Shown here in pieces: positions 5,988 through 41,645 of a stretch of 64,000 nucleotides of DNA. Source of the DNA: a phage; assembly GCA_024672315.1 (NCBI GenBank), contig GCA_024672315.1_4714.1, one strand, 5' to 3'. How positions within the stretch are numbered: position 1 is the first letter of the stretch; every line of letters begins with the position of its first letter. Under the pieces are notes generated by a model. The model worked only from the letters and a program-made list of their open reading frames with translations, did not search any database and had not been told where the DNA came from. The translations under genes were made by a program, and so were the position numbers.

Positions 5988-6019
5988 AACGTTTTCCTTC
6001 TTGGGTTTTGTACATGTTG

Positions 6020-6661
6020 CTAACGGCGTTTTGTACCGACCTTCCCGTTTCGATGGTCGTCAAGAATACGCCATTCTTCGAACAGGAGTTCAGCTGCGAA
6101 ATAACCTACGGCGATGCTGTCTATCGCATGCTCATCAAGATTCGCTAACACAACACCGTTTCTGGGTGTGATGTTCATGAGGTTCAACACTTTCTGGCGA
6201 ACATCGTCCTTACCAACACGGGACGTCATGATCCCAACAGCGCGTTTTGCGCTTCGGTTATCAACCCCTAAGAAAGACACCGTAGGATCAAAATCGATAA
6301 CCGTTGTCTGAATCGCTGAAAACAGCTCGCTGAGCGCCATCCCGCTTTGCTTGAAACGACCGATGAACGGTGTCTCACAAGCAACCGCTTGCGGCTGGTA
6401 CTCTTGCAATAACGTTGTCAGCGAACGACGGTGTTCTTGGATACGCGCGGCACGATTACCGTATCCAAGCGCAATATCGCCATCGGGATCGTATCGACGT
6501 GAAGCGTGCCATGTCCCCGCATACAGCAGTTCAATATCTTCGACACGCACGTCCAAACGTAGTAACGACGCACCGAGCGTATCGGTGCCAGGGTCGATTG
6601 CCAGAATATCGTAAGCGTATTCTGGTGGGATCATGGTGTTACAACAGCCTCTACTGACCAT
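6020..6661 (-). CDS. RuvC-like Holliday junction resolvase
   Basis: Motifs ILAIDPGTD (catalytic Asp), AVACETPF (Glu), DEHAIDSIAVGY (His/Asp) in RuvC order; alternative start ATG 6634 gives an ATGA overlap with the upstream gene. Confidence 0.7.
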   Translation of the reverse strand: MVSRGCCNTMIPPEYAYDILAIDPGTDTLGASLLRLDVRVEDIELLYAGTWHASRRYDPDGDIALGYGNRAARIQEHRRSLTTLLQEYQPQAVACETPFIGRFKQSGMALSELFSAIQTTVIDFDPTVSFLGVDNRSAKRAVGIMTSRVGKDDVRQKVLNLMNITPRNGVVLANLDEHAIDSIAVGYFAAELLFEEWRILDDHRNGKVGTKRR

Positions 6662-7443
6662 GGGAAGGTTTTCGCAACAACACCTTCCAGGAAGCGTTCA
6701 ACTTCCGATTGCTCATACACCGAAAGCTTTTCAAACGGTGTTTGGTCTTCGGTTAAACCTACCGCATGAATAGGACCCAGGTCTTTAACCAGGGTAACTT
6801 CGCCTTTAACGCCTTCGCGTTTAACGATGATCGCATGATCGTTAACCTTAGGATCGTACAGCACGCGCATCATGGTTACTGCATCATCCGGTTCATAACC
6901 GAAATCGATGGCAACACGAGCATTCGTCCCTTCATCGTCCAGAAGCTTGCTTAGCGCTTTACAACGGTCTTCAATCCAATCCAACGCAACCACGGTTTCT
7001 TGGCGTAGCTGAACCTCAACTTCTTTTCCTTGTTCGTCGATACGTTTCACGGTAACAAAATCGTGTAATAAACGGTCAGGAAGGAGGGAAGCAATAAGCT
7101 CAACGTTGGGTTCAGGTTTTTCGTTTTCCAGAATGATGGTCGCTTGTGCGTCCAGATGTTCTTTAAAACGGATGTAACGCGTTAATCGCAGAACCTCGTC
7201 TTGGGATTTTGCGTCTTCGGGAATAATCTCCGTCATGACGTTATAGATCTTTTCAGCGAACGTCGGAATTACGGTGATTGTAATTCGTGCTGGCGTACCA
7301 CGCTCCTGGTACTCATCGGCTAACTTCTTCGCCATCCCGTTAAAATAAGTCTGGAGAAACGGTTGCTGCGTTAAAAACATTTTCTCCAGATCGGAATAGC
7401 GATGCTTGCGTGCATGGCCTAGCTTCTTCATGGGCTTTTTCAT
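6631..7443 (-). CDS. hypothetical protein between SbcC-like and RuvC-like genes
   Basis: Track start 7446 is TTG; ATG 7443 with AAGGAT RBS; no Mre11/SbcD phosphoesterase motifs. Confidence 0.55.
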   Translation of the reverse strand: MKKPMKKLGHARKHRYSDLEKMFLTQQPFLQTYFNGMAKKLADEYQERGTPARITITVIPTFAEKIYNVMTEIIPEDAKSQDEVLRLTRYIRFKEHLDAQATIILENEKPEPNVELIASLLPDRLLHDFVTVKRIDEQGKEVEVQLRQETVVALDWIEDRCKALSKLLDDEGTNARVAIDFGYEPDDAVTMMRVLYDPKVNDHAIIVKREGVKGEVTLVKDLGPIHAVGLTEDQTPFEKLSVYEQSEVERFLEGVVAKTFPWSVEAVVTP

Positions 7444-7464
7444 CAACAGAAATCCTTATTTGTC

Positions 7465-9921
7465 TTAAATAATCGTGACGTGTTCGTTATATGTTTCAGG
7501 GAGAATGATGTTCGTTTTATCAAGAACCATACACTCGGCTTTACGGAATGATGCATGGTTGATCACATAGTGGCTGATGAACCACACCTGGCTTACGCGG
7601 TGACCATCAACCAGACGACGAACAAAATCCATGGCATTAGATTGGTGCTGAGGATCAAATGTTGATGCGAATTCATCTAACATCAACGGATAATCCGTGA
7701 ACCCTTTGTAATGCATCATCGCGATGATGAACGCAATGTTGATAATTTCCTTTTGTCCCTTACTCCCATAAACAATATCTTTTCGCGGTGTCGGATACTT
7801 CTCAGTTAAAAGCGGAAAACGATAGTTCAATCCTTGCGCGTCGATAGCACACGGGAGTATCTGAAGTTGGTATTCCCAAATACTCGCAATGATACCGTTC
7901 ATGTACTCAACGAACGCGTTGATGGGACCCGCAATTGTTTCGGCAATCAGTCCGTTGGATGGACTTAACTCATCCAGAACAAGTTGTGCGTAACCGAGCT
8001 GTTCTTCCACCTCTTTTTGTGTCGTTTCCAACTGAGCCAGAAGCTGCTGGTCGGTTTTAGCTTCCTGTAACTGCTGTTCGACATGACTTATTCGGCGAAC
8101 CGTATCAGACATCGCAGCACGTAACGATTTCGTGTAGAGGTGTTGCAGATACTCTAACCACAGTTGGGTTAACGCTTTATCGCTGTTATCAGAACGCACC
8201 TGATCTTCCATAATCGCCGTAATGGTTTCCAGTCTACCTTCCGTAGCTGTGATGGCTTGTGTTAACCGCTCAACGGTTGTTAACAACTCTGTCCTGTTCT
8301 TATAAAGCGATTCTCGGCGTTGCTGTAACGGTTCAACATCAACCGCTTGTACACGTTCGAGCATACCTTGAAGATGCTTCCGTTCTTGTTCGGCTTGTGT
8401 GTAACGCGCAAGTTTCTCAAACGCAAGCAACCAATCGTTAATGATTCCAATGCTGCGGAATCCTAAACCGTTTTTACGTCCTTCTTCCAGCAGATTATCC
8501 CACATGGGTTTAATGGCGTAATAATCCTTCGTCCAACGCGTTAACTGACGATGCTGTTCCATCCAGAGCGTATAGCGCTGAACCTTCTCGCTAAGCTCAG
8601 CTAACGATTTCTCTTGTTCTTCAACCCAAGCACGACCCTTCTGAATACGCTGTTCAATACCCGCTTTGCTGGTCTTCTCTGTTTCACCAACATGAAAGCG
8701 ATAGTTGCATTTTGGACAGCTGGTCTGGGGTTGATGGTTAAGGTGGTCAAGATGCGCTTCTAAATCGGCTAACGCATGTTTCGCGTTACGCAAACGCATT
8801 CTTGCCGCCTCTTCCTCCTTGATGTAAGCTTCAGCATCGTAAACATGATAGGTGTTGTCGGTATCAATCCATTCTTGGAGTAATTCTGTTAACGGAGCCT
8901 GAACTTGCGTGAGCTGTTGTAAACAAACCGCAGCGTCCAGATTCATCGTTAAAAGCTCACCTGGATGATCTTGCTGAAGTTGTTCGTCCAAACAGGCAAG
9001 GCGGGCTTTAATCTGATCGATATCACCTTCACCAGACTGTTTCAACTGGTCAAGGATATTATCGATGCCCAACAGCTCGTCAACCTGACTTTCGAGTTTT
9101 GCATTCGCATTCGCGAGTTGTTCTCTTAGTTCAGCCAGATTCTGCTGTTCTTGTTGCGATGTTCCTCCTTGGTAACGAACAACCGCACGTAGAAGCTCGC
9201 GATTAAAATGATGGGCACGTTGTGCGGATTCCAGAAGCTGTCGTTGATCAACATCGCTATCGAATAACGGCAATCCCATCATCGCTTCGAGTGCTGAGCG
9301 TTGCTGCTTTAACTCTGCTTCTAATCCCTGGTGGTCGGTGCCGGTGTATTTCGCTTCAATACGCTGTGATGTTTCAACCAACTTATTCAGTGTGTGTTCA
9401 TTCACCGCTTTCAGTGAACGTACCTGTTGCTTAACCACCTGAAACAATTCAAGTGCGTAATCGACGTTAACCGGACATATCTGCGTTAATCGTTCGCGAC
9501 GTTTCATCGGCCCCATTTCGGTGAACTGGTAAGCCGTTTCGTAACCTAACAACAAACGAATGGTGTCGTCATTAAGTTCAAAATGTTCCTCGATTAGTTT
9601 CCACTGAGCGGGTTGTGTGCCACCACCGTTCAGGTTCTCGCTGTCGTTAACGTAGAACTCATGCTTAAACCCTTTTTCTAAACGACTGATAAGACGGTAT
9701 TGCTTATTACGGTGTTCACAGCGGTATTCGTAATACCCGTCTTTATCAAAATCGGCACGCTCAGGAACGGTCGGATACAGCAAAGGCAATAGACTACTCT
9801 TACCCGAACCGTTGCTGCCTAAAATGAGTTGTACGGGATTATCTGGCCGGATGACCAGCTCCCGAATCATCCCGGTATCAAAACGATTGAATCCACGTAA
9901 GTGGAGATAGGTGCATCGCAT
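7465..9921 (-). CDS. SbcC/Rad50-like ATPase with zinc hook
   Basis: Walker A GSNGSGKSS, long central coiled-coil with CPKC hook, signature-like YGSKGQKEI, Walker B LMLDEF, H-loop ISH; start placed at ATG 9921 (AAGGAT RBS, gives Rad50-like N-terminus); in-frame ATG also at 9984. Confidence 0.8.
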   Translation of the reverse strand: MRCTYLHLRGFNRFDTGMIRELVIRPDNPVQLILGSNGSGKSSLLPLLYPTVPERADFDKDGYYEYRCEHRNKQYRLISRLEKGFKHEFYVNDSENLNGGGTQPAQWKLIEEHFELNDDTIRLLLGYETAYQFTEMGPMKRRERLTQICPVNVDYALELFQVVKQQVRSLKAVNEHTLNKLVETSQRIEAKYTGTDHQGLEAELKQQRSALEAMMGLPLFDSDVDQRQLLESAQRAHHFNRELLRAVVRYQGGTSQQEQQNLAELREQLANANAKLESQVDELLGIDNILDQLKQSGEGDIDQIKARLACLDEQLQQDHPGELLTMNLDAAVCLQQLTQVQAPLTELLQEWIDTDNTYHVYDAEAYIKEEEAARMRLRNAKHALADLEAHLDHLNHQPQTSCPKCNYRFHVGETEKTSKAGIEQRIQKGRAWVEEQEKSLAELSEKVQRYTLWMEQHRQLTRWTKDYYAIKPMWDNLLEEGRKNGLGFRSIGIINDWLLAFEKLARYTQAEQERKHLQGMLERVQAVDVEPLQQRRESLYKNRTELLTTVERLTQAITATEGRLETITAIMEDQVRSDNSDKALTQLWLEYLQHLYTKSLRAAMSDTVRRISHVEQQLQEAKTDQQLLAQLETTQKEVEEQLGYAQLVLDELSPSNGLIAETIAGPINAFVEYMNGIIASIWEYQLQILPCAIDAQGLNYRFPLLTEKYPTPRKDIVYGSKGQKEIINIAFIIAMMHYKGFTDYPLMLDEFASTFDPQHQSNAMDFVRRLVDGHRVSQVWFISHYVINHASFRKAECMVLDKTNIILPETYNEHVTII

Positions 9922-29587: not shown

Positions 29588-30439
29588 TCAGTTATATTGC
29601 ATCAACAGGATACCGCCGTAGTTCGTGCAGTAATCTTGGCTAAGCGTAACGATAACAGCGTTAGCGAACGCAGGGTTAACCGGATAACCCTGTGCGATAA
29701 GTTCTGTTGTTTTACCGGTTGCAAGCACAGTGGCTCCGTAAAGGTTGTTTTCGTCTTCACGGCCGTTATAAACCCACGGGATTGGCGCAACGTTGTTGAA
29801 TAAGCTAACCAGTGCGCTTAAGTTACCGCCAACTTTTAACCCAGCAAGATCGGAACGGATAGCCGTACAGTCTATAGCGTAACTGTAGACCAATGCCTGG
29901 ATACGATTTGCGGTGTAGTACGGGAAATTGAGACCGGTCATCACCGAAGTCTTCATCATCCCCGCAATATCGTGGGCACTATCGAGGAGATAGAACGTAA
30001 CACTTCCCGTCCAAGCCAATCCGGTTGTTTTCAATTCTACGGTGTGAGGGAACGGATATTCATCCCCTCGTACAATCGGAGAATCGACGCAGCTATCCTG
30101 ATCGATAACGATTCCGTACGTTGATTGAATCAGAGGGATAAGATCGTGCGTCGTTTTAACCCCAGCATCGATAGCAAGCTTCGGTTCCATTCCCAAGAAG
30201 AAGTCTTGGATAGGGATACGATCGTACCACACGTAGCTGCTTTCACGGTATTGTGCTGGCGTTACTGTTGCCGAAGGCGATACCTTAGCGCGTGTGTTCC
30301 GTTTATACGCATGGTTTCCGTTTTCAGCAGCATCCGTGATATCAATTGCATCGAAGTTAAAGTCGAAGTCAGGATTGGCCGCCTGAATAAGTTCAGCGAC
30401 CAGTACTTTAGGACTTTTGTTTAACAATTTCTGACTCAT
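29588..30439 (-). CDS. member of ~300-aa paralog family
   Basis: 283 aa; VWYDRIPIQDFF, STYGIVID, LAWTGSV blocks; AAGGAA RBS. Confidence 0.6.
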   Translation of the reverse strand: MSQKLLNKSPKVLVAELIQAANPDFDFNFDAIDITDAAENGNHAYKRNTRAKVSPSATVTPAQYRESSYVWYDRIPIQDFFLGMEPKLAIDAGVKTTHDLIPLIQSTYGIVIDQDSCVDSPIVRGDEYPFPHTVELKTTGLAWTGSVTFYLLDSAHDIAGMMKTSVMTGLNFPYYTANRIQALVYSYAIDCTAIRSDLAGLKVGGNLSALVSLFNNVAPIPWVYNGREDENNLYGATVLATGKTTELIAQGYPVNPAFANAVIVTLSQDYCTNYGGILLMQYN

Positions 30440-30449
30440 TGTTTATTCC

Positions 30450-31385
30450 TTAGCCTTGTTCTTCTGGAGAACGACCCTGGAGGCTTGCGGTATGTCCGTC
30501 GACATTGTAATAGAAAATCAATGGACCGCCAACGGCAGTACAGTAGTTTTCATCCAGACTGATCTCGATACCGTATTGGTAACCTGCTCTTGCTGGAATA
30601 CGTCCGCCTAACTCACCGTTGAAAGCCACTTTAGCATTATACAGGTTATACGGTGCGGCGTTGTCGTCTAATACCCAACGATCGGTAGTCATTTCAGCCA
30701 GAAGATCGGCAACCACCACATCGCTAATAACGGTACCTGTTACCAGCGAAGCCAGTAGTTCACCGTAATCAGAAGTATCACGACTGTAACTGTAAATCTC
30801 GCCGCTAGCGCGTACGCCTTGACCGAAGAACTTAAGGCCGTCCAGCTCCTTGATCGCGATAATATCATCAAGATTCGGTACACGCGACTTCATCAAGATA
30901 CGAACGCTCCCCGTCCAAGCCAGGCAGTTAGATGCGACACGAAGCAATTGTCCGTTAACGGTATCCCAGTTAAGTTCGTCGTTGACGATTTCTTCCGCGG
31001 TAAGGCCAAGACCGAAACGTTCTTTGATGATAGGCCAGATTTCACGCATCTTGGTGGCGTCTGGCGCATCGATAAGAATAGGCGCTACGTTACGCAGATA
31101 CGCACCGATGTTAATACGATCGTAATACAGCGTCGTCGAACCTTCATAATCGTCTAACTCGGTAAGCTTAGCGGTTGCTGTCGCCGTAATCTGGGTGTCG
31201 CGCTCGTAGGCGCTTTGGTTAGTGGTTGGTGTTCCTAAAACCAATAATTCAGGGGTTAGAACATGCTCTCCGTTCTGAGGTGGGTTATCGTGGTTGATAA
31301 GACCATACACGAGATCGGATGAGGGTAAAGAGACGTCGACCGGGTAAAGTTCGGTGTCGTCAATAGTTGTTACCGTATCACTCAC
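30450..31385 (-). CDS. member of ~300-aa paralog family
   Basis: 311 aa; GTG start with strong GAGGAGG RBS; LYYDRINIGAYL, ERFGLGLT, LAWTGSV blocks. Confidence 0.6.
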   Translation of the reverse strand: MSDTVTTIDDTELYPVDVSLPSSDLVYGLINHDNPPQNGEHVLTPELLVLGTPTTNQSAYERDTQITATATAKLTELDDYEGSTTLYYDRINIGAYLRNVAPILIDAPDATKMREIWPIIKERFGLGLTAEEIVNDELNWDTVNGQLLRVASNCLAWTGSVRILMKSRVPNLDDIIAIKELDGLKFFGQGVRASGEIYSYSRDTSDYGELLASLVTGTVISDVVVADLLAEMTTDRWVLDDNAAPYNLYNAKVAFNGELGGRIPARAGYQYGIEISLDENYCTAVGGPLIFYYNVDGHTASLQGRSPEEQG

Positions 31386-37155: not shown

Positions 37156-37216
37156 ACGGTTTCCTTATCAACTAGGGTATTGCAAATACAATACCCGTCG
37201 TCGGACGATAAGTTAA

Positions 37217-39775
37217 TTACTGCTCATCACGTTCCAACAGATACTCGGAAGCGGTAATACCGTTTACCGTACGCACTGCTTTCAGACGAGTATCATCACT
37301 CAGAATCACGGTAACAGATTGCAGACCTTTTACTTTGGTTTCGAAGGTCTTGAACACCTGATCCAGCATACGAGCAATGCTTGGGTTGGTTGCAGCCGAT
37401 GCGTGAGTGTAACCGCTCTGGTTCAGCTTCAGAATCTTGGCGTTGGTCGGTACGCGAACAACAACATGCGGACGCATCGCGAATACGCTGTGATTGAACC
37501 AGTAAGCATCGTTGCTATCTTCGTCGGTAACGATGTCTGGATTAACACGCATATCCTCGATAGCCGCATCCGCCAAACGACGTTCGATTTCATCGGCGTC
37601 CAGAGAGCCATCTTTCTCCAGTTCTGCACGATACTCACTCATGGCGACCAGATGACGCTCACGATTCGCTGCAGATTTTTCGTGAGCGGCTTTCAGGTAG
37701 TCATGCATGTTGTACAGTTCAGCCATGGAAAGACGAATGTTCCATTGACCTTCGCCATCACGATTGCAGTAGAGACACTTCAGCATGTTGACCCAGGTGT
37801 AGTAGCAATTGGAGAATTCATCTTCAATGAACTTCTGGTCCATTTTAAGATCGTGAATCAGCCAACCGGACAGTTCTCCGATATCATCAACGAAGCTAGA
37901 GATGGTGGTTTCAGAGAAGTTCTTCGGTACGATACGTTTGATCAGCTTATTGACGTCTTTGGTCATGCTATCGTTCAGGAAATGCCAGATACGCAGAGGA
38001 ATGACATCTCGATACTGTTGCATGATCTGACGATAAGCTTTGATATCGTCGCTACGACCTTTATCAATAGACAACGCATCCAGGAATTCATGGATTGCAT
38101 CCAGCTCCTTGTCGGTATAGGTTCCCAGATAGGAATTGACCGTAGCCAGGAATGCTAATGCGTCGTTTTGGTTGACGTCGGTGTTGGTCTGCTGAATGAT
38201 TGCCACTGAAGCTTTGGTTTCAGCATCCTCAACGCTTGACGCTGCGATTGCGTCGGTGACGGTAAACAGTTTCATTTCGCGCTGCTCGCCGACAACGATT
38301 GGTTCGCGTTGAACCGGTTTGTTAAGGCTAACACGAACAACTTCTGCTTGCGCGATGCGATCCAGTTTTGCCATTTCCTGCTCTGCCATACGACGAGCGG
38401 TTGGATCTGATTCAAGTTCGATGTATTCCACTTCTTCCTCCGTGAGGGATGTAATGTCAACAATGGTTTCATGAAGAATTCCGTTTTCGTCGATACGTGC
38501 CCGACGAGCGAAGTGTCTGAAGTCATACAACGTCGGCCAACGACTATTAGGTGCAAAGTCTTTGGCTTTCAGACGCATCTGCATAAATTCTTCATGTTGA
38601 ACAACACGACCGTAACGCTTAGCATCTTCGGTCGCATCAATTGGATTAACGGTCTTTGTTACCGTAGCAGAACGAGCCGTACGAACGGGTTCCGGTTTCA
38701 CCTGCGCAGGTTCAGGTTGAACGGGTTTCTGCTGCCCAGCCTTAACATGCCATTCTGGCTCTTCGTACTGTTCAGCAAACTGTTCAGCCGCTGCAAAGAT
38801 ATCGTTGATACCACCAATATCTCCTTCAGGATTTGTCGAGTAAATCCGTGGTTGTGGTGCCTCGTAACGCGGCGCTGTAGCAGCAGGTGCATCATCAACG
38901 ATAGGATCGTCATCACCAACATCATACAAACGGTTGAACGCACAATCCTTCGAATCGATGTACGATGGCGCTTGTGGTTGAACAACCGTCGGCCGAGGTT
39001 GTGCGCCGTATCCTGGCGTTGTTGGAGCCATACCACGCATAACTGCCGGATTAGGCTGGTATTGCGGTTGCGGATAGGTTCCACCATACATGGCGTACGC
39101 TGGCTGTTGTGGTTGACCGTACCCGCCACTAACCATCGCGCTTGCTTGCGGGCCACGATAAGTCATCCCCATCTGCATCACCTGCTGCTTCAAACCACGT
39201 GACTTCTGCGCGATTTGTGCCAGGCTCCCGCTTTTATTCAGCTGCGTGTACTTATTCGCGGCTTCCGGGTTAATGCGTGATAATTCAATCGCGCGATAAT
39301 ATTCCGGGTACTGATTCGGTTCAAAGAGCCACGTTACAAGATGATACAGCGCAACTGTGCTCACGGCAGCAGAGACGATCTGGTCGTCGGACGCGTTCTG
39401 CGGCATCGGGTTGATGTAAGAGAACACGTTCCAACAACAGTCTTCAACAAGCGATTCCATCATCATATCGTTATTGGTATAACGTGCGACGAATTCGGTT
39501 TGTATTTTGTCTTGCTGAGCGAAGTCTTTCAGGACATTAAAGATAGCTTGACGGATTTTGACGATCGTTGCTTCTTGGGTGATGAAGTTATAGTTCTGCT
39601 GATATGAGGGTTGTTGGTATTGTGGTGGTTGATAGGCGTTATTCGGATATGCGCCGTACGGCGATTGCTGATACTGTTGCTGACGAACCTGTTCAGCCGC
39701 ATAATTAACCGTGCTCGTATAAGGGTTTTCGCTATAGCCCATTTGTTGATACATGTTGTTACTGCCATTATACAT
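37217..39775 (-). CDS. hypothetical protein with Gln/Tyr/Pro-rich low-complexity regions
   Basis: 852 aa; AAGGAT RBS; N-terminal ~70 aa and residues ~205-285 are Q/Y/P/N-rich. Confidence 0.55.
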   Translation of the reverse strand: MYNGSNNMYQQMGYSENPYTSTVNYAAEQVRQQQYQQSPYGAYPNNAYQPPQYQQPSYQQNYNFITQEATIVKIRQAIFNVLKDFAQQDKIQTEFVARYTNNDMMMESLVEDCCWNVFSYINPMPQNASDDQIVSAAVSTVALYHLVTWLFEPNQYPEYYRAIELSRINPEAANKYTQLNKSGSLAQIAQKSRGLKQQVMQMGMTYRGPQASAMVSGGYGQPQQPAYAMYGGTYPQPQYQPNPAVMRGMAPTTPGYGAQPRPTVVQPQAPSYIDSKDCAFNRLYDVGDDDPIVDDAPAATAPRYEAPQPRIYSTNPEGDIGGINDIFAAAEQFAEQYEEPEWHVKAGQQKPVQPEPAQVKPEPVRTARSATVTKTVNPIDATEDAKRYGRVVQHEEFMQMRLKAKDFAPNSRWPTLYDFRHFARRARIDENGILHETIVDITSLTEEEVEYIELESDPTARRMAEQEMAKLDRIAQAEVVRVSLNKPVQREPIVVGEQREMKLFTVTDAIAASSVEDAETKASVAIIQQTNTDVNQNDALAFLATVNSYLGTYTDKELDAIHEFLDALSIDKGRSDDIKAYRQIMQQYRDVIPLRIWHFLNDSMTKDVNKLIKRIVPKNFSETTISSFVDDIGELSGWLIHDLKMDQKFIEDEFSNCYYTWVNMLKCLYCNRDGEGQWNIRLSMAELYNMHDYLKAAHEKSAANRERHLVAMSEYRAELEKDGSLDADEIERRLADAAIEDMRVNPDIVTDEDSNDAYWFNHSVFAMRPHVVVRVPTNAKILKLNQSGYTHASAATNPSIARMLDQVFKTFETKVKGLQSVTVILSDDTRLKAVRTVNGITASEYLLERDEQ

Positions 39776-39809
39776 TTCTTACGATCCTTTTTATTTATTC
39801 GGTTATGTG

Positions 39810-41606
39810 TCAATCGATTATGTCGTGATCGTTAATTTCTACAATTTCTTCATCGAATCGACCGACGTCTTTCTTCAAGCCTGCATTGGTTGCTGCAACG
39901 TCATTTGCAATTTGTGGAGTAATGATTAACCGACCACGCTCGTCGATAGGTGCGTACATACTGAACTTCTGACGTCCGGTTGGTTCGGAGTGCGGAAGAT
40001 TCAGATAGCTTGCACAGAACGGGATGGAACCACTAACCAAACGACTCTCGTCAGCCAATGCAGCACCGCCTGCATTTTGGCTCTGGAGAACAACATGTGT
40101 GCTCACTTTGAACAGCATGCAATCACCAGGTGACTGAATCGATGTTGCCACTTTCTCACGTTTATCACGATTGCTCTGGATATTGAGAATCGCTTCCGTT
40201 GCAACTTGATTTCGCAACGCCTTCTGTACATCGCGATTGGTCATCTCTTTACGGTTGTTCTGTCGTTTACCACGTTCTGTGGTTTTAAGATGGAACCCCA
40301 GTTTAAAGATGCTCTTACGCACATCCTCCATGACATATTCCAACACCATCAGTTCCTTACCGAACATCGTCGTGGTATCAACACGACTCATTTCGATAGT
40401 AACATTATCAATCAGATACGCCATAAATTCGTAGAAGTCGTCGCAAGGAATATTTTCCTGTTTGAACTTCTTCTGTTGAATCTCGTCAACGTAAAGATCG
40501 AGACTGTCGATGTGGTGGTTTACATCACGCAACAAACGCGCATCCGCATTGTTGTTATTAAAGATAATCAAACCGAGTAATGTACGCCAATGGTCTGGCG
40601 CATTCGCGAACTCTTCAACCGGATAGTCTTCCGGAAAACGATCGTAATAACGGTCGATGAGATATAAGAACGCACCGACAAGGCCAAGAACAATACGTTC
40701 CGTGCCTCCACGTCTTACAGCGATTTGAATATCAGGATGTTTATAACGTACAGCGCTAGCGCTACGGCTTTTACCGCTTTTGCTGATACTAAAGCCTTTA
40801 GGAATAACCCCCATGGTGCGATAGATTACCCATTGGTCGCGCGGAAAATCACGTTCAGCAAGGTTCCGTCCGGTTACGGCTTCGACACCTGCAAAACGTC
40901 GGAAACACTCACCCACCCCGTACTTCGCAAAGAGATAGTGACCCAGTGTGGTTACGCTGGTGTGGTTGATGTTGTCACCGTTCACTTTACTTTGTTTGGT
41001 AAGATGATAGATTTGCGACCAGGGTAATGACAGGTAATGACGATAATCGATACCGGTCGGTGTATCATTGCTCAGGAACTGATACGGTGTACGTTTAACC
41101 GTGATTTTGTCACGCGGAAGCATGATGAACGCCATGTCTTTCGTGTAACTGATTACCGGGTCAGCGAGCACCGCACTGAGAATGAAGTTCGCACCACGTA
41201 GACGCATTTTACCACCCTGACCTACCGCGGGTAATAGGAGAGGGTGTCGGATAATGCAGTAGTCCTTTCCGGGTTCACGACGGTCACCTGATTCCATCGC
41301 GCCGTACCAGCGGAATTCTAGCATCACCATAAACACATCGGAAGGCGCAAGGTCGAAGGTCAGCTTACCGCTATCCTTCCCTTTGGTTTTCTTTCCTCCG
41401 CTTAAGTAGTGGAACTGTTCGCGGGCCATACAGCGACGCAGGCCATGATACACCAGATCCTTAGGTAAACTATCTTTGCTGTTCCGCCAAAGACGATCAA
41501 CATAGGACTCAACATCTTGCATCTTATCGACGACGATGTTGCGTGCTATCTTCTCGTTCATCTTCGGTGCAAGCTCAGCGACAGCTTTGCAGAATCTAGG
41601 ATCCAT
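39810..41606 (-). CDS. hypothetical protein
   Basis: Track start 41609 is GTG; ATG 41606 with AAAGGAG RBS; 598 aa; no polymerase or ligase motifs. Confidence 0.55.
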   Translation of the reverse strand: MDPRFCKAVAELAPKMNEKIARNIVVDKMQDVESYVDRLWRNSKDSLPKDLVYHGLRRCMAREQFHYLSGGKKTKGKDSGKLTFDLAPSDVFMVMLEFRWYGAMESGDRREPGKDYCIIRHPLLLPAVGQGGKMRLRGANFILSAVLADPVISYTKDMAFIMLPRDKITVKRTPYQFLSNDTPTGIDYRHYLSLPWSQIYHLTKQSKVNGDNINHTSVTTLGHYLFAKYGVGECFRRFAGVEAVTGRNLAERDFPRDQWVIYRTMGVIPKGFSISKSGKSRSASAVRYKHPDIQIAVRRGGTERIVLGLVGAFLYLIDRYYDRFPEDYPVEEFANAPDHWRTLLGLIIFNNNNADARLLRDVNHHIDSLDLYVDEIQQKKFKQENIPCDDFYEFMAYLIDNVTIEMSRVDTTTMFGKELMVLEYVMEDVRKSIFKLGFHLKTTERGKRQNNRKEMTNRDVQKALRNQVATEAILNIQSNRDKREKVATSIQSPGDCMLFKVSTHVVLQSQNAGGAALADESRLVSGSIPFCASYLNLPHSEPTGRQKFSMYAPIDERGRLIITPQIANDVAATNAGLKKDVGRFDEEIVEINDHDIID

Positions 41607-41645
41607 CACACACTCCTTTCAGAAAGTTGCTTAAGCAGATTAAAG

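Follow-up and report, generated by a model that had tools for sequence, protein, structure and literature searches.

JADA (phiKZ gp124 / Pa36 gp316, PDB 9RP3), named in 2026, is a chimallivirus-specific protein that is essential and expressed early, and its gene always sits immediately downstream of one for an nvRNAP subunit (PMC12931631). For phiKZ_124 early, abundant expression and essentiality were reported, and JADA ranks among the most abundant early proteins (PMC12931631). Pa36 JADA comprises an N-domain (residues 1-170), a linker (171-269) described as an extended stretch that is flexible or disordered, without cryo-EM density, and a C-domain (270-721) that forms a rigid homodimer according to cryo-EM (9RP3, 2.1 A) and mass photometry (PMC12931631). 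Bacterial Avs5 immunity senses JADA; the C-domain alone suffices to activate Avs5 and is toxic if expressed alone (PMC12931631). In infected cells JADA forms foci at the early-infection (EPI) vesicle, to which plasmid-expressed JADA is recruited from the cytosol, and DNA binding has been predicted (PMC12931631). A second chimallivirus protein, ChmC (Goslar gp176), carries an N/G-rich disordered tail that is needed for RNA condensates in vitro (PMC11077065). The function of JADA was still called unknown in a 2026 review.

Few early proteins are both essential and specific to chimalliviruses; JADA is among them and triggers a dedicated anti-jumbo-phage immune system. Placing a protein of the jumbo phage Goslar (Chimalliviridae), the nucleus-forming E. 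coli model chimallivirus, in this family provides a tractable JADA. Goslar is well amenable to genetics and cryo-ET, and its virion structure has been solved. Two further systems serve as comparison for the low-complexity tracts described below: prion-like domains of the FUS family, in which Tyr “stickers” are set among Q/G/S/N “spacers”, and the C-terminal domain (CTD) of RNA polymerase II, a Tyr-periodic disordered tail of YSPTSPS heptads.

Homology of Goslar gp38 to JADA

The window, i.e. the whole stretch of phage DNA analyzed here (64,000 nucleotides), carries gp38 as an open reading frame at the coordinates named by the first-pass annotation, which gave no strand; it lies on the minus strand and starts with ATG (Table 1). 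The product matches Goslar_00038 / HOV27_gp038 (YP_009820723.1) with 98.8% identity to the annotated protein (tblastn; Goslar only). The region upstream of gp38, including an AAGGA motif, is kept in two diverged relatives (L013 and L014); this motif supports the annotated start and hence the N-terminal tract. A tandem-repeat search of the gp38 coding DNA found none, which points to compositional bias and not to a recent slippage array. Scans for sigma-70 promoters and terminators gave fewer matches than expected by chance; sigma-70 is irrelevant to phage RNAP promoters.

Table 1. Features of the gp38 locus; positions refer to the window, residues to gp38.
Feature	Positions	Strand	Basis
Goslar gp38 CDS, probable JADA ortholog, 852 aa	37217..39775	minus	ORF, translation, homology
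N-terminal low-complexity tail, residues 1-65, Q/Y/N/P-rich	39581..39775	minus	composition, AF2 pLDDT, spacing, dN/dS
N-terminal all-alpha domain, residues ~66-200, 8 predicted helices	39176..39580	minus	AF2 helices 56-201, pLDDT 55-72
Q/P/G/Y-rich linker core, residues 201-272	38960..39175	minus	composition, AF2 pLDDT 23-31, dN/dS
Remaining linker, residues 273-380, acidic, Pro/Ala-rich, predicted disordered	38636..38959	minus	AF2 pLDDT 24-47, composition
Acidic-aromatic motif in linker, residues 323-342, ...AAAEQFAEQYEEPEW	38750..38809	minus	AF2 isolated helix 323-336
C-terminal alpha/beta domain, residues 381-852	37220..38635	minus	hhalign, profile, Foldseek, dN/dS
Shine-Dalgarno-like AAGGA	39785..39789	minus	~10 nt 5' of gp38 ATG, sequence read
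gp39, beta-like subunit of a non-virion RNA polymerase, homologous to phiKZ gp123	39810..41609	minus	directly upstream of gp38, co-oriented

Our analysis places gp38 as a divergent ortholog of JADA with a probability of roughly 0.8. By homology it would be an early protein specific to chimalliviruses, in which a long, intrinsically disordered linker joins an all-alpha N-domain to a C-domain of alpha/beta type. The bridge between Goslar and phiKZ is made by synteny together with pairwise and profile-profile comparison. In BLASTP a chain of matches leads from gp38 to Xoo_124 (4e-8) and from Xoo_124 to phiKZ gp124 (2e-13), and P0005, a representative of the closest outgroup, also matches Xoo_124 (1.6e-11). 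In hhalign, comparison of the Goslar with the phiKZ clade aligns gp38 residues 405-643 to phiKZ residues 369-611 (probability 98%, E 2.7e-13, 220 columns). A profile built without phiKZ gp124 (A6) retrieves 9rp3_A as its sole PDB match (E 4.8e-6), and phiKZ gp124 itself matches the 9RP3 chain across its full length. A published PSI-BLAST table likewise lists Goslar gp038 and PHIKZ124 in one column, that of RAY gp004 (PMC10299810 supplement).

The identity of gp38 to phiKZ JADA is only 12-20%. A phmmer search of the PDB with gp38 alone returned no match, and an exhaustive HMMER profile search of 1.84 billion representatives stopped short of the phiKZ clade; its three matches were all Goslar-like and contributed a single diverged relative. 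Word-indexed homolog searches found close Goslar-like proteins only, little improved by a C-domain-only alignment; low-complexity words probably saturated their candidate list. Nothing significant was found in Pfam and PHROGs scans of gp38; the best Pfam match, Cas9_C_2 over 60 residues, scored 18.4 bits where the cutoff is 27 bits (E 0.0019) and was dismissed as chance. All tblastn matches are chimallivirus genomes, and the contigs of relatives carry the Pfam families PhiKZ_MCP and DUF7941, which are typical of chimalliviruses. The “gp38” discussed in bioRxiv 2024.03.24.586471 is phiKZ gp38, an unrelated ribosome-associated protein, and must not be confused with Goslar gp38.

The genomic context is that of a JADA gene. 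The gene gp39 ends 34 nt before the gp38 start on the same strand; it matches phrog_2943 “polymerase” (E 7e-120), retrieves phiKZ gp123 and 235 chimallivirus records in tblastn and is marked “nvRNAP” in Goslar Table S4. In the common gene order, MCP is followed by small gene(s), the beta-like subunit of nvRNAP, gp38/JADA, a small gene and a reverse-strand portal block; this order holds in Goslar, phiKZ, Xoo-sp14, LucasX, SPLA10, RSF1, Ea35-70, Kodama, Aphrodite1, ZPAH34 and Noxifer as well as in two metagenomic contigs. Among genomic neighbours, it is the upstream nvRNAP subunit gene that defines JADA genes.

The domain layout agrees with this placement. The first-pass annotation had taken everything outside the low-complexity regions for one large ordered domain of unknown function. 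Instead, two folded domains are predicted, and “unknown” is outdated for a protein of a named family whose C-domain structure (2.1 A) and interaction with an immune system are known. The N-domains of Xoo-sp14, phiKZ and RSF1 align mutually, and that of gp38 probably corresponds to the JADA N-domain (Pa36 residues 1-170). For the C-domain, of which AF2 models residues 420-852 as alpha/beta, Foldseek searches with both AF2 models returned 9rp3_A/B as the only significant PDB matches (E 7e-9 to 2e-7, probability 1.00, ~460 columns), with TM 0.32-0.36 and rmsd 12-21 A; these poor superposition values are attributed to the low confidence of the models (pLDDT 48 and 57.5). These values make a common fold with 9RP3 possible and fall short of a clean demonstration.

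In sum of its likenesses, gp38 occupies the same slot, co-oriented and directly downstream of the nvRNAP beta-like subunit, shares with JADA a helical N-domain, a long predicted-disordered linker and a large C-domain, and is likewise restricted to chimalliviruses. It differs in being 131 aa longer, owing to an extra Q/Y-rich N-tail of 65 aa, a linker of ~180 aa compared to ~100 aa and a C-domain enlarged by ~70 residues. Linker composition is Q/P/G/Y-rich in gp38 and G/Q/P/M-rich in phiKZ, and gp38 was found in virion preparations at ~25 copies.

Composition, disorder and selection in the low-complexity tracts

The first-pass annotation had noted two regions dominated by Q, Y, P, N and G, and this bias is real and charge-poor. 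The Q/Y/P/N/G fraction in 40-aa windows reaches 0.72 (residues 31-70) and 0.68 (221-260) with 3-7% charged residues. The best 60-aa window of gp38 scores 0.70, followed at 0.45 by the runner-up among the window's 51 ORFs that span 150 aa or more, and none of 5000 shuffles of gp38 reached 0.70 (maximum 0.57). Residues 1-70 contain 21% Q, 17% Y, 13% N and 9% P, and residues 205-285 contain 16% P, 12% Q and 11% each of Y, G and A. In the N-tail a Tyr recurs about every five residues in degenerate xxxxY pentads (e.g. PYGAY-PNNAY-QPPQY-QQPSY), and its aromatic residues are spaced more evenly than those of shuffled sequences (CV 0.37 vs 0.79, P=0.0016).

Disorder is predicted for both tracts, as had been proposed. 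AF2 pLDDT stays below 50 at residues 1-54 (25-35) and 206-417 (23-31 in 206-300), and mean hydropathy and charge put residues 1-65 and 201-272 beyond the Uversky boundary, among disordered sequences. The extent originally given needs correction: both tracts were found, but predicted disorder runs on through residues 206-417 and includes the acidic, Pro/Ala-rich part of the linker. The N-terminal tract is a disordered tail, and the second tract is the first part of the conserved interdomain linker of the family. The acidic-aromatic motif in the remaining linker is possibly a short linear motif. A similar E-rich motif followed by P-x-W/F occurs in P0005, P0010, Ea35-70, P0008 and Aphrodite1 and is absent from the phiKZ and Xoo clades in our ortholog comparison.

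The gp38 tracts are under purifying selection as strong as that on the folded N-domain. dN/dS is 0.13-0.18 in the N-tail and 0.10-0.11 in the linker core (measured at dS ~0.7-1.1) and 0.04-0.10 in the C-domain; between L013 and L014 none of 77 N-tail residues has changed at dS 0.24. A mosaic dS pattern places a recombination breakpoint between Goslar-clade variants in linker residues 273-380. N-tail and linker are real, selected segments that are predicted to be disordered.

Across the family, a low-complexity tract precedes the C-domain in all 18 orthologs examined, and its chemistry differs by lineage (Q/Y/P, Q/M/P, G/R/Y/S, RD/RG or poly-GV). Xoo-sp14, RSF1, SPLA10 and Kodama have linkers of RD/RG type, Noxifer has a poly-GV and LucasX a G/R/Y/S linker. 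The N-tail occurs in enterobacterial, Vibrio and Aeromonas lineages; the closest outgroup (P0005, P0010) and phiKZ lack it. The unconserved linker chemistry argues against one specific prion-like mechanism as the ancestral function. New in our analysis are the constant retention of a tract with lineage-specific chemistry, the purifying selection and the even Tyr spacing; the JADA paper contains no discussion of this comparative picture of a chemistry reinvented per lineage, including selection, Tyr spacing and breakpoint.

Compared with the FUS family, the gp38 tracts share a low charge (~5%), a Q+N content of 35%, ~20% aromatic residues that are nearly all Tyr (these three values for residues 1-65), even spacing and predicted disorder. 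They differ in being proline-rich (9-16%) and short (65 + 72 aa), in an N-tail that is poor in Ser and Gly, and in that gp38 has no RRM or other recognizable RNA-binding domain. Such a proline content is unlike that of classical amyloid-forming prion domains, which would argue against amyloid and not against liquid-like association. The RNA polymerase II CTD resembles gp38 by its periodic Tyr in a Pro/Ser/Gln-rich disordered tail, by the genetic coupling of gp38 to a multisubunit RNA polymerase and by the separation of transcription from translation in this virus. In gp38, by contrast, the repeats are ~5 degenerate pentads and do not sit on a polymerase subunit. Since most JADA lineages have no Tyr periodicity, we retain the CTD as an analogy only.

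Possible roles of the tracts and the presence of gp38 in virions

A tentative mechanism, which we regard as possible but rather doubtful, treats N-tail and linker as multivalent segments with Tyr stickers and Q/P/G/N spacers. Through them dimeric gp38 might self-associate or weakly bind partners and so become concentrated at the EPI vesicle. There its C-domain dimer would take part in the early expression of phage genes alongside the nvRNAP, whose subunit gene JADA genes always follow. The disordered tail of ChmC counts as a precedent; the missing N-tail in P0005, P0010 and phiKZ and the varying linker chemistry count against the idea. ChmC is also a chimallivirus protein that combines an oligomeric folded domain with a low-complexity disordered tail and forms puncta in infected cells (PMC11077065), and it too was carried over in the Goslar virion mass spectrometry (MS). 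The two proteins differ in fold (ChmC is an unrelated Whirly tetramer), in tail chemistry (N/G-rich followed by an S/D/E cluster in ChmC, Q/Y/P in gp38) and in place and time of action, ChmC acting at the nuclear shell in mid-infection and JADA at the EPI vesicle. RNA binding has been demonstrated for ChmC, whereas for JADA there is a DNA-binding prediction only.

To another explanation we assign somewhat less than an even chance: the tracts may be no more than a flexible entropic linker and tail that hold the N-domain close to the dimeric C-domain. Their composition could then drift largely freely, and their prion-like look would be an accident of the lineage that serves neither condensation nor binding. 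Linker position is conserved while its chemistry differs radically between clades, tract length varies (13-14 gap columns within the Goslar clade) and the recombination breakpoint falls inside the linker. The JADA paper, moreover, treats the linker simply as disordered or flexible, and the only known interaction, Avs5 activation, needs no more than the C-domain. A passive tether is harder to reconcile with the purifying selection (dN/dS 0.10-0.18; 0/77 changes at dS 0.24), with the non-random evenness of Tyr spacing (P=0.0016) and with an N-terminal tract that is a free tail without a domain on both sides. Most of the compositions seen are also of types (Q/Y/G, RGG/GSY, RD/RG) that are generally associated with multivalent interaction.

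Docking sites for host proteins would be another use of the tracts. They would then carry short linear motifs and not self-association modules, which we consider very unlikely. In an earlier screen, as cited in PMC11849849, phiKZ gp124 bound host DnaX/FtsZ. The acidic-aromatic linker motif is conserved in several clades, and lineage-specific chemistry could track host-specific partners. SPLA10 (Salmonella) and Goslar (E. coli), however, infect the same host group with an RD-rich and a Q/Y-rich linker, respectively, and the toxicity of JADA, which might also suggest a host target, maps to the C-domain expressed alone and not to the linker (PMC12931631).

The virion data concern both the status of gp38 and a further possible role. 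In CsCl-purified Goslar virions gp38 was detected with 26 peptides and 80 spectra, corresponding to ~25 copies (estimated 17-39). This is unexpected for a strictly “early non-virion” protein. In the same preparation its copy number is ~180x that of the nvRNAP subunit gp39 (0.14) and ~200x that of DNA polymerase (0.12), and it lies in the range of the vRNAP subunits (7-21 copies) and the portal (estimated 16). Such a vRNAP-like copy number raises the possibility that some JADA is injected. If gp38 were packaged in the capsid and delivered with the DNA, its tracts might, as is the case for other ejected phage proteins, aid tail passage or association with the inner body or DNA; the gene is surrounded by genes for head, portal and baseplate, and presence at the EPI vesicle would suit an injected protein. 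We nevertheless judge this scenario unlikely. Clearly non-virion proteins occur at similar or higher levels in that preparation (chimallin 126, PhuZ 171, ChmC 78, thymidylate synthase 20), and JADA is so abundant early that carry-over is plausible. gp38 is not among the 28 proteins of the Goslar virion cryo-EM model, its “Substructure” field in Table S4 is empty and the main text does not mention it. Furthermore, annotated virion proteins of phiKZ include the neighbours of gp124 but not gp124 itself, the Churi ortholog is among the non-structural proteins at 15 mpi, and plasmid-expressed JADA reaches the foci from the cytosol (PMC12931631).

The first-pass annotation had called the composition of the tracts rare in phage structural proteins and would have been contradicted by ordered low-complexity regions in an ordinary virion component. 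The cryo-EM model and the early, essential, non-structural character of JADA in the phiKZ group set gp38 apart from ordinary structural proteins; detection in virions at ~25 copies speaks for the contrary view, and the non-virion proteins in the same preparation weaken it.

Quite unlikely, in our estimate, is a further reading in which the tracts form the functional core of an early-infection hub. In every chimallivirus lineage a sticky tract of its own kind (Tyr/Gln for Goslar, RGG/GSY for LucasX, RD/RG for the phages of Salmonella, Ralstonia and Xanthomonas) would condense the dimer on or around the EPI vesicle. Nascent phage transcripts, ribosomes or nvRNAP subunits would be gathered there ahead of the protein nucleus; in Goslar a few dozen copies would be pre-packaged and injected with vRNAP as a seed. 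If true, JADA would be a phage analogue of eukaryotic transcription-condensate scaffolds.

In the part of the MS peptide table covered, only peptides 328-345 and 717-733 of gp38 are confirmed. On a possible loss of the N-terminal part of gp38 to the prohead protease this mapping gave no indication either way, short peptides from the N- and C-domains both being missing from that part. A semi-tryptic N-terminus at A328 was not read as a processing site; other semi-tryptic peptides exist, and A328 does not fit S/A/G-x-E, the motif of the phiKZ protease.

Identity of gp38 and relation to JADA

The gene for gp38 is a single ORF of 852 codons. Its start is credible because an AAGGA motif lies ~10 nt 5' of the ATG and because the upstream region is kept in two diverged relatives (Goslar-clade loci L013 and L014); the stop of the preceding gene is 34 nt away. 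The sole tblastn match to gp38 among phage genomes was Escherichia phage vB_EcoM_Goslar (98.8% identity), a nucleus-forming jumbo phage of the Chimalliviridae, where the gene (Goslar_00038 / HOV27_gp038) is annotated as 'hypothetical protein'. Searches of Pfam and PHROGs gave no match. The gene order, i.e. major capsid protein (MCP), one or two small genes, subunit of the non-virion RNA polymerase (nvRNAP), ORF of 650-880 aa, small ORF and reverse-strand portal block, was found in all sampled chimallivirus clades and also in two metagenomic Goslar-like contigs; by position, gp38 thus corresponds to phiKZ gp124.

Features of the gp38 region
Feature	Window position	Strand	gp38 residues	Remarks
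gp38	37217-39775	minus	1-852	ATG at 39775; stop 37217-37219
Linker motif AAAEQFAEQYEEPEW	38750-38809	minus	323-342	acidic-aromatic; predicted lone helix
Putative recombination breakpoint	38636-38959		~273-380	inside the disordered linker
Extra C-domain segment	37496-37769	minus	~669-760	also in relatives P0005/P0010
Terminator-like hairpin	37193-37208	minus		weak; T-rich tail; 9 nt past gp38 stop, before gp37
gp39	39810-41609	minus		adjacent to gp38; 'polymerase' PHROG, phiKZ gp123-type nvRNAP subunit
gp41				MCP; neighbour of gp38
gp36		plus		portal
gp33, gp34	29588-31385 and neighbours			paralogues of ~290-310 aa, both phrog_1037, DUF7941 family

The name JADA, an acronym of Jumbo phage Avs5 Defense Activator, was given to the chimallivirus-specific Pa36 gp316 by Muralidharan et al. 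(Mol Cell 2026, PMC12931631). Its C-domain is a rigid homodimer and has a novel fold; it was solved at 2.1 A, with no density for N-domain and linker, and is sufficient for activation of the Sir2-NADase immune sensor Avs5; a role in DNA-binding or early transcription has been proposed (PMC12931631). phiKZ gp124 aligns over its full length with the 721-residue chain of PDB 9RP3, 'Gp316/JADA', and a profile built without phiKZ gp124 itself retrieved 9rp3_A as the sole PDB sequence match (E 4.8e-6). Xoo-sp14 gp124 was matched by gp38 in pairwise BLASTP (E 4e-8), by the metagenomic relative P0005 (E 1.6e-11) and by phiKZ gp124 (E 2e-13), and profile-profile comparison of the Goslar and phiKZ clades gave 98% probability (E 2.7e-13, 220 columns). 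A published PSI-BLAST table, as independent evidence, groups Goslar gp038, PHIKZ124 and Noxifer gp126 in its RAY gp004 entry (PMC10299810 supplement). In Foldseek searches with both AlphaFold2 models 9rp3_A/B were the sole significant matches (E 7e-9 to 2e-7, probability 1.00), with TM scores of just 0.32-0.36 because the models are poor. On these sequence grounds gp38 is the Goslar member of the JADA family and hence not novel as a kind. Fold aside, gp38 also has the remaining JADA characters that can be assessed here. The Goslar protein is not named in the text of the JADA paper or in its accessible supplements (PMC12931631). For the Pseudomonas ortholog an early essential function, foci at the early-infection (EPI) vesicle, a C-domain dimer and Avs5 sensing have been reported (PMC12931631), and by homology the same would be expected of gp38.

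The RefSeq annotation of the PhiPA3 ortholog (L004:2534-4640; NC_028999.1 125935-128041) seems to be faulty: after gp140 (262 aa, 'similar to gp124 phiKZ') it has gp141 on the opposite strand, overlying the region where tblastn places the JADA C-domain on the + strand.

Composition and domain architecture

The Gln/Tyr/Pro-rich tracts reported in the first-pass annotation are real. Residues 1-70 consist of Q21/Y17/N13/P9 % and residues 205-285 of P16/Q12/Y11/G11/A11 %, with Q/Y/P/N/G maxima of 0.72 and 0.68 in 40-residue windows that have only 3-7% charged residues. The best 60-residue window reaches 0.70, compared to 0.45 for the next-best among 51 long ORFs of the window, and none of 5000 shuffles of gp38 attained this value; the bias is thus far above chance and statistically solid. 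A search of the coding DNA for tandem repeats found none.

The AlphaFold2 model, based on a 12-sequence MSA, is poor overall (pLDDT 48, pTM 0.30). Residues 1-54 (pLDDT 25-35) and 206-417 have no confident structure in it; an eight-helix N-domain (56-201) and a mixed alpha/beta C-terminal region are predicted, both at low confidence. The annotation had located the tracts correctly and needs three corrections: the ORF is on the minus strand, the predicted disordered region is longer (to ~residue 380), and what had been taken for one large ordered domain is modeled as two. The functional interpretation is right in part. The tracts are disordered, the protein is probably non-structural, foci would be expected by homology, and gp38 may bind nucleic acids; phase separation and RNA binding are hypotheses.

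The Goslar-clade C-domain is ~70 residues longer than its counterparts (473 aa vs ~403-413 aa in phiKZ / Xoo-sp14). The additional material comprises helices 690-721 and 727-744 with low-pLDDT flanks (669-701 and 745-769) and in the model seems to form a helical hairpin that is long and charged. The acidic-aromatic linker motif has counterparts in P0005/P0010 (EEEDPxWDPL), Ea35-70 (EEEENEEPMF), P0008 (NEEEEALFNPP) and Aphrodite1 (DDEDDAPLVF); it was not found in the phiKZ, Xoo and RSF1 clades. It is a candidate short linear binding motif.

Evolution and possible role of the disordered tracts

A low-complexity tract precedes the conserved C-domain in all 18 of the 18 orthologs examined, and its chemistry is lineage-specific: Q/Y/P/G in Goslar and P0007, Q/G/N in P0005 and P0010, Q/M/P in the Erwinia clade (Ea35-70, P0008, P0009), Q/G/M in Aeromonas and Vibrio phages, G/Q/P/M in phiKZ, poly-GV in Noxifer, RGG-like G/R/Y/S in LucasX, and RD/RG repeats in Xoo-sp14, RSF1, SPLA10 and Kodama. 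The Goslar, Erwinia, Vibrio and Aeromonas lineages have a distinct Q/Y/P/M tail at the N-terminus, which phiKZ and P0005/P0010 lack. What this analysis adds is the family-wide view of a disordered module, conserved yet chemically reinvented and under selection, together with a possible association of gp38 with the virion.

The main rival explanation, that the tracts are a mere flexible tether, is quite possible if short of an even chance. It would account for a chemistry that is not conserved among lineages, but it sits poorly with purifying selection and with the tyrosine patterning of the tail. Within the Goslar clade dN/dS is 0.13-0.18 for the tail (residues 1-65) and 0.10-0.11 for the linker core (201-272) at dS ~0.7-1.1; the values for N- and C-domain are 0.16-0.17 and 0.04-0.10, respectively, and the tails of L013 and L014 show 0/77 amino-acid changes at dS 0.24. 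The tracts are not drifting; disordered tail and linker are under selection. The 13 tail aromatics recur about every five residues, a spacing evener than in 99.8% of shuffles. Even aromatic spacing in prion-like domains favours liquid-like over aggregating behaviour.

In the active role that we propose tentatively, with a probability of about 0.3, the Tyr-rich tail and linker would supply the putative gp38 dimer with multivalent weak interactions. These contacts would aid its concentration at the EPI vesicle, where the C-domain would take part in early gene expression together with the nvRNAP encoded alongside it. A low-complexity tail with a function has a precedent in the same virus group, ChmC (Goslar gp176), whose in vitro RNA condensates require its N/G-rich tail (PMC11077065).

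Judging from sequence divergence, Goslar-clade JADA genes are mosaic. L014 and L013 (both 6001-8592) are nearly identical, at dS 0.10-0.24, from the tail through the N-domain to the linker core, and the L014 C-domain is nearly identical to that of Goslar (dS 0.067, 3 aa differences/472), which points to a breakpoint inside the linker and to N- and C-modules exchanged as units.

Virion association and minor observations

Packaging of gp38 in the virion as well is an improbable third reading. LFQ-MS of Goslar virions detected 26 gp38 peptides and ~25 copies, ~180-fold over the neighbour gp39 (0.14 copies; gp37, 0.8) and within the vRNAP-subunit range; no virion substructure was assigned to gp38 (bioRxiv 10.64898/2026.04.21.720040, Table S4), and chimallin, PhuZ, ChmC and thymidylate synthase were at similar or greater levels in the same sample. 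The signal reflects either carry-over of an abundant cytoplasmic protein or packaging at a vRNAP-like level.

The number of terminator-like sites in the gp38 region does not exceed shuffle expectation. DUF7941 proteins, such as gp33 and gp34, have been described as baseplate-anchored filaments (bioRxiv 10.64898/2026.04.21.720040). The metagenomic P0006 (47 aa) matches gp38 over its first 33 residues save for three substitutions and then diverges; a frameshift or truncation of the read in the low-complexity-coding part of a Goslar-like JADA gene is the probable explanation.
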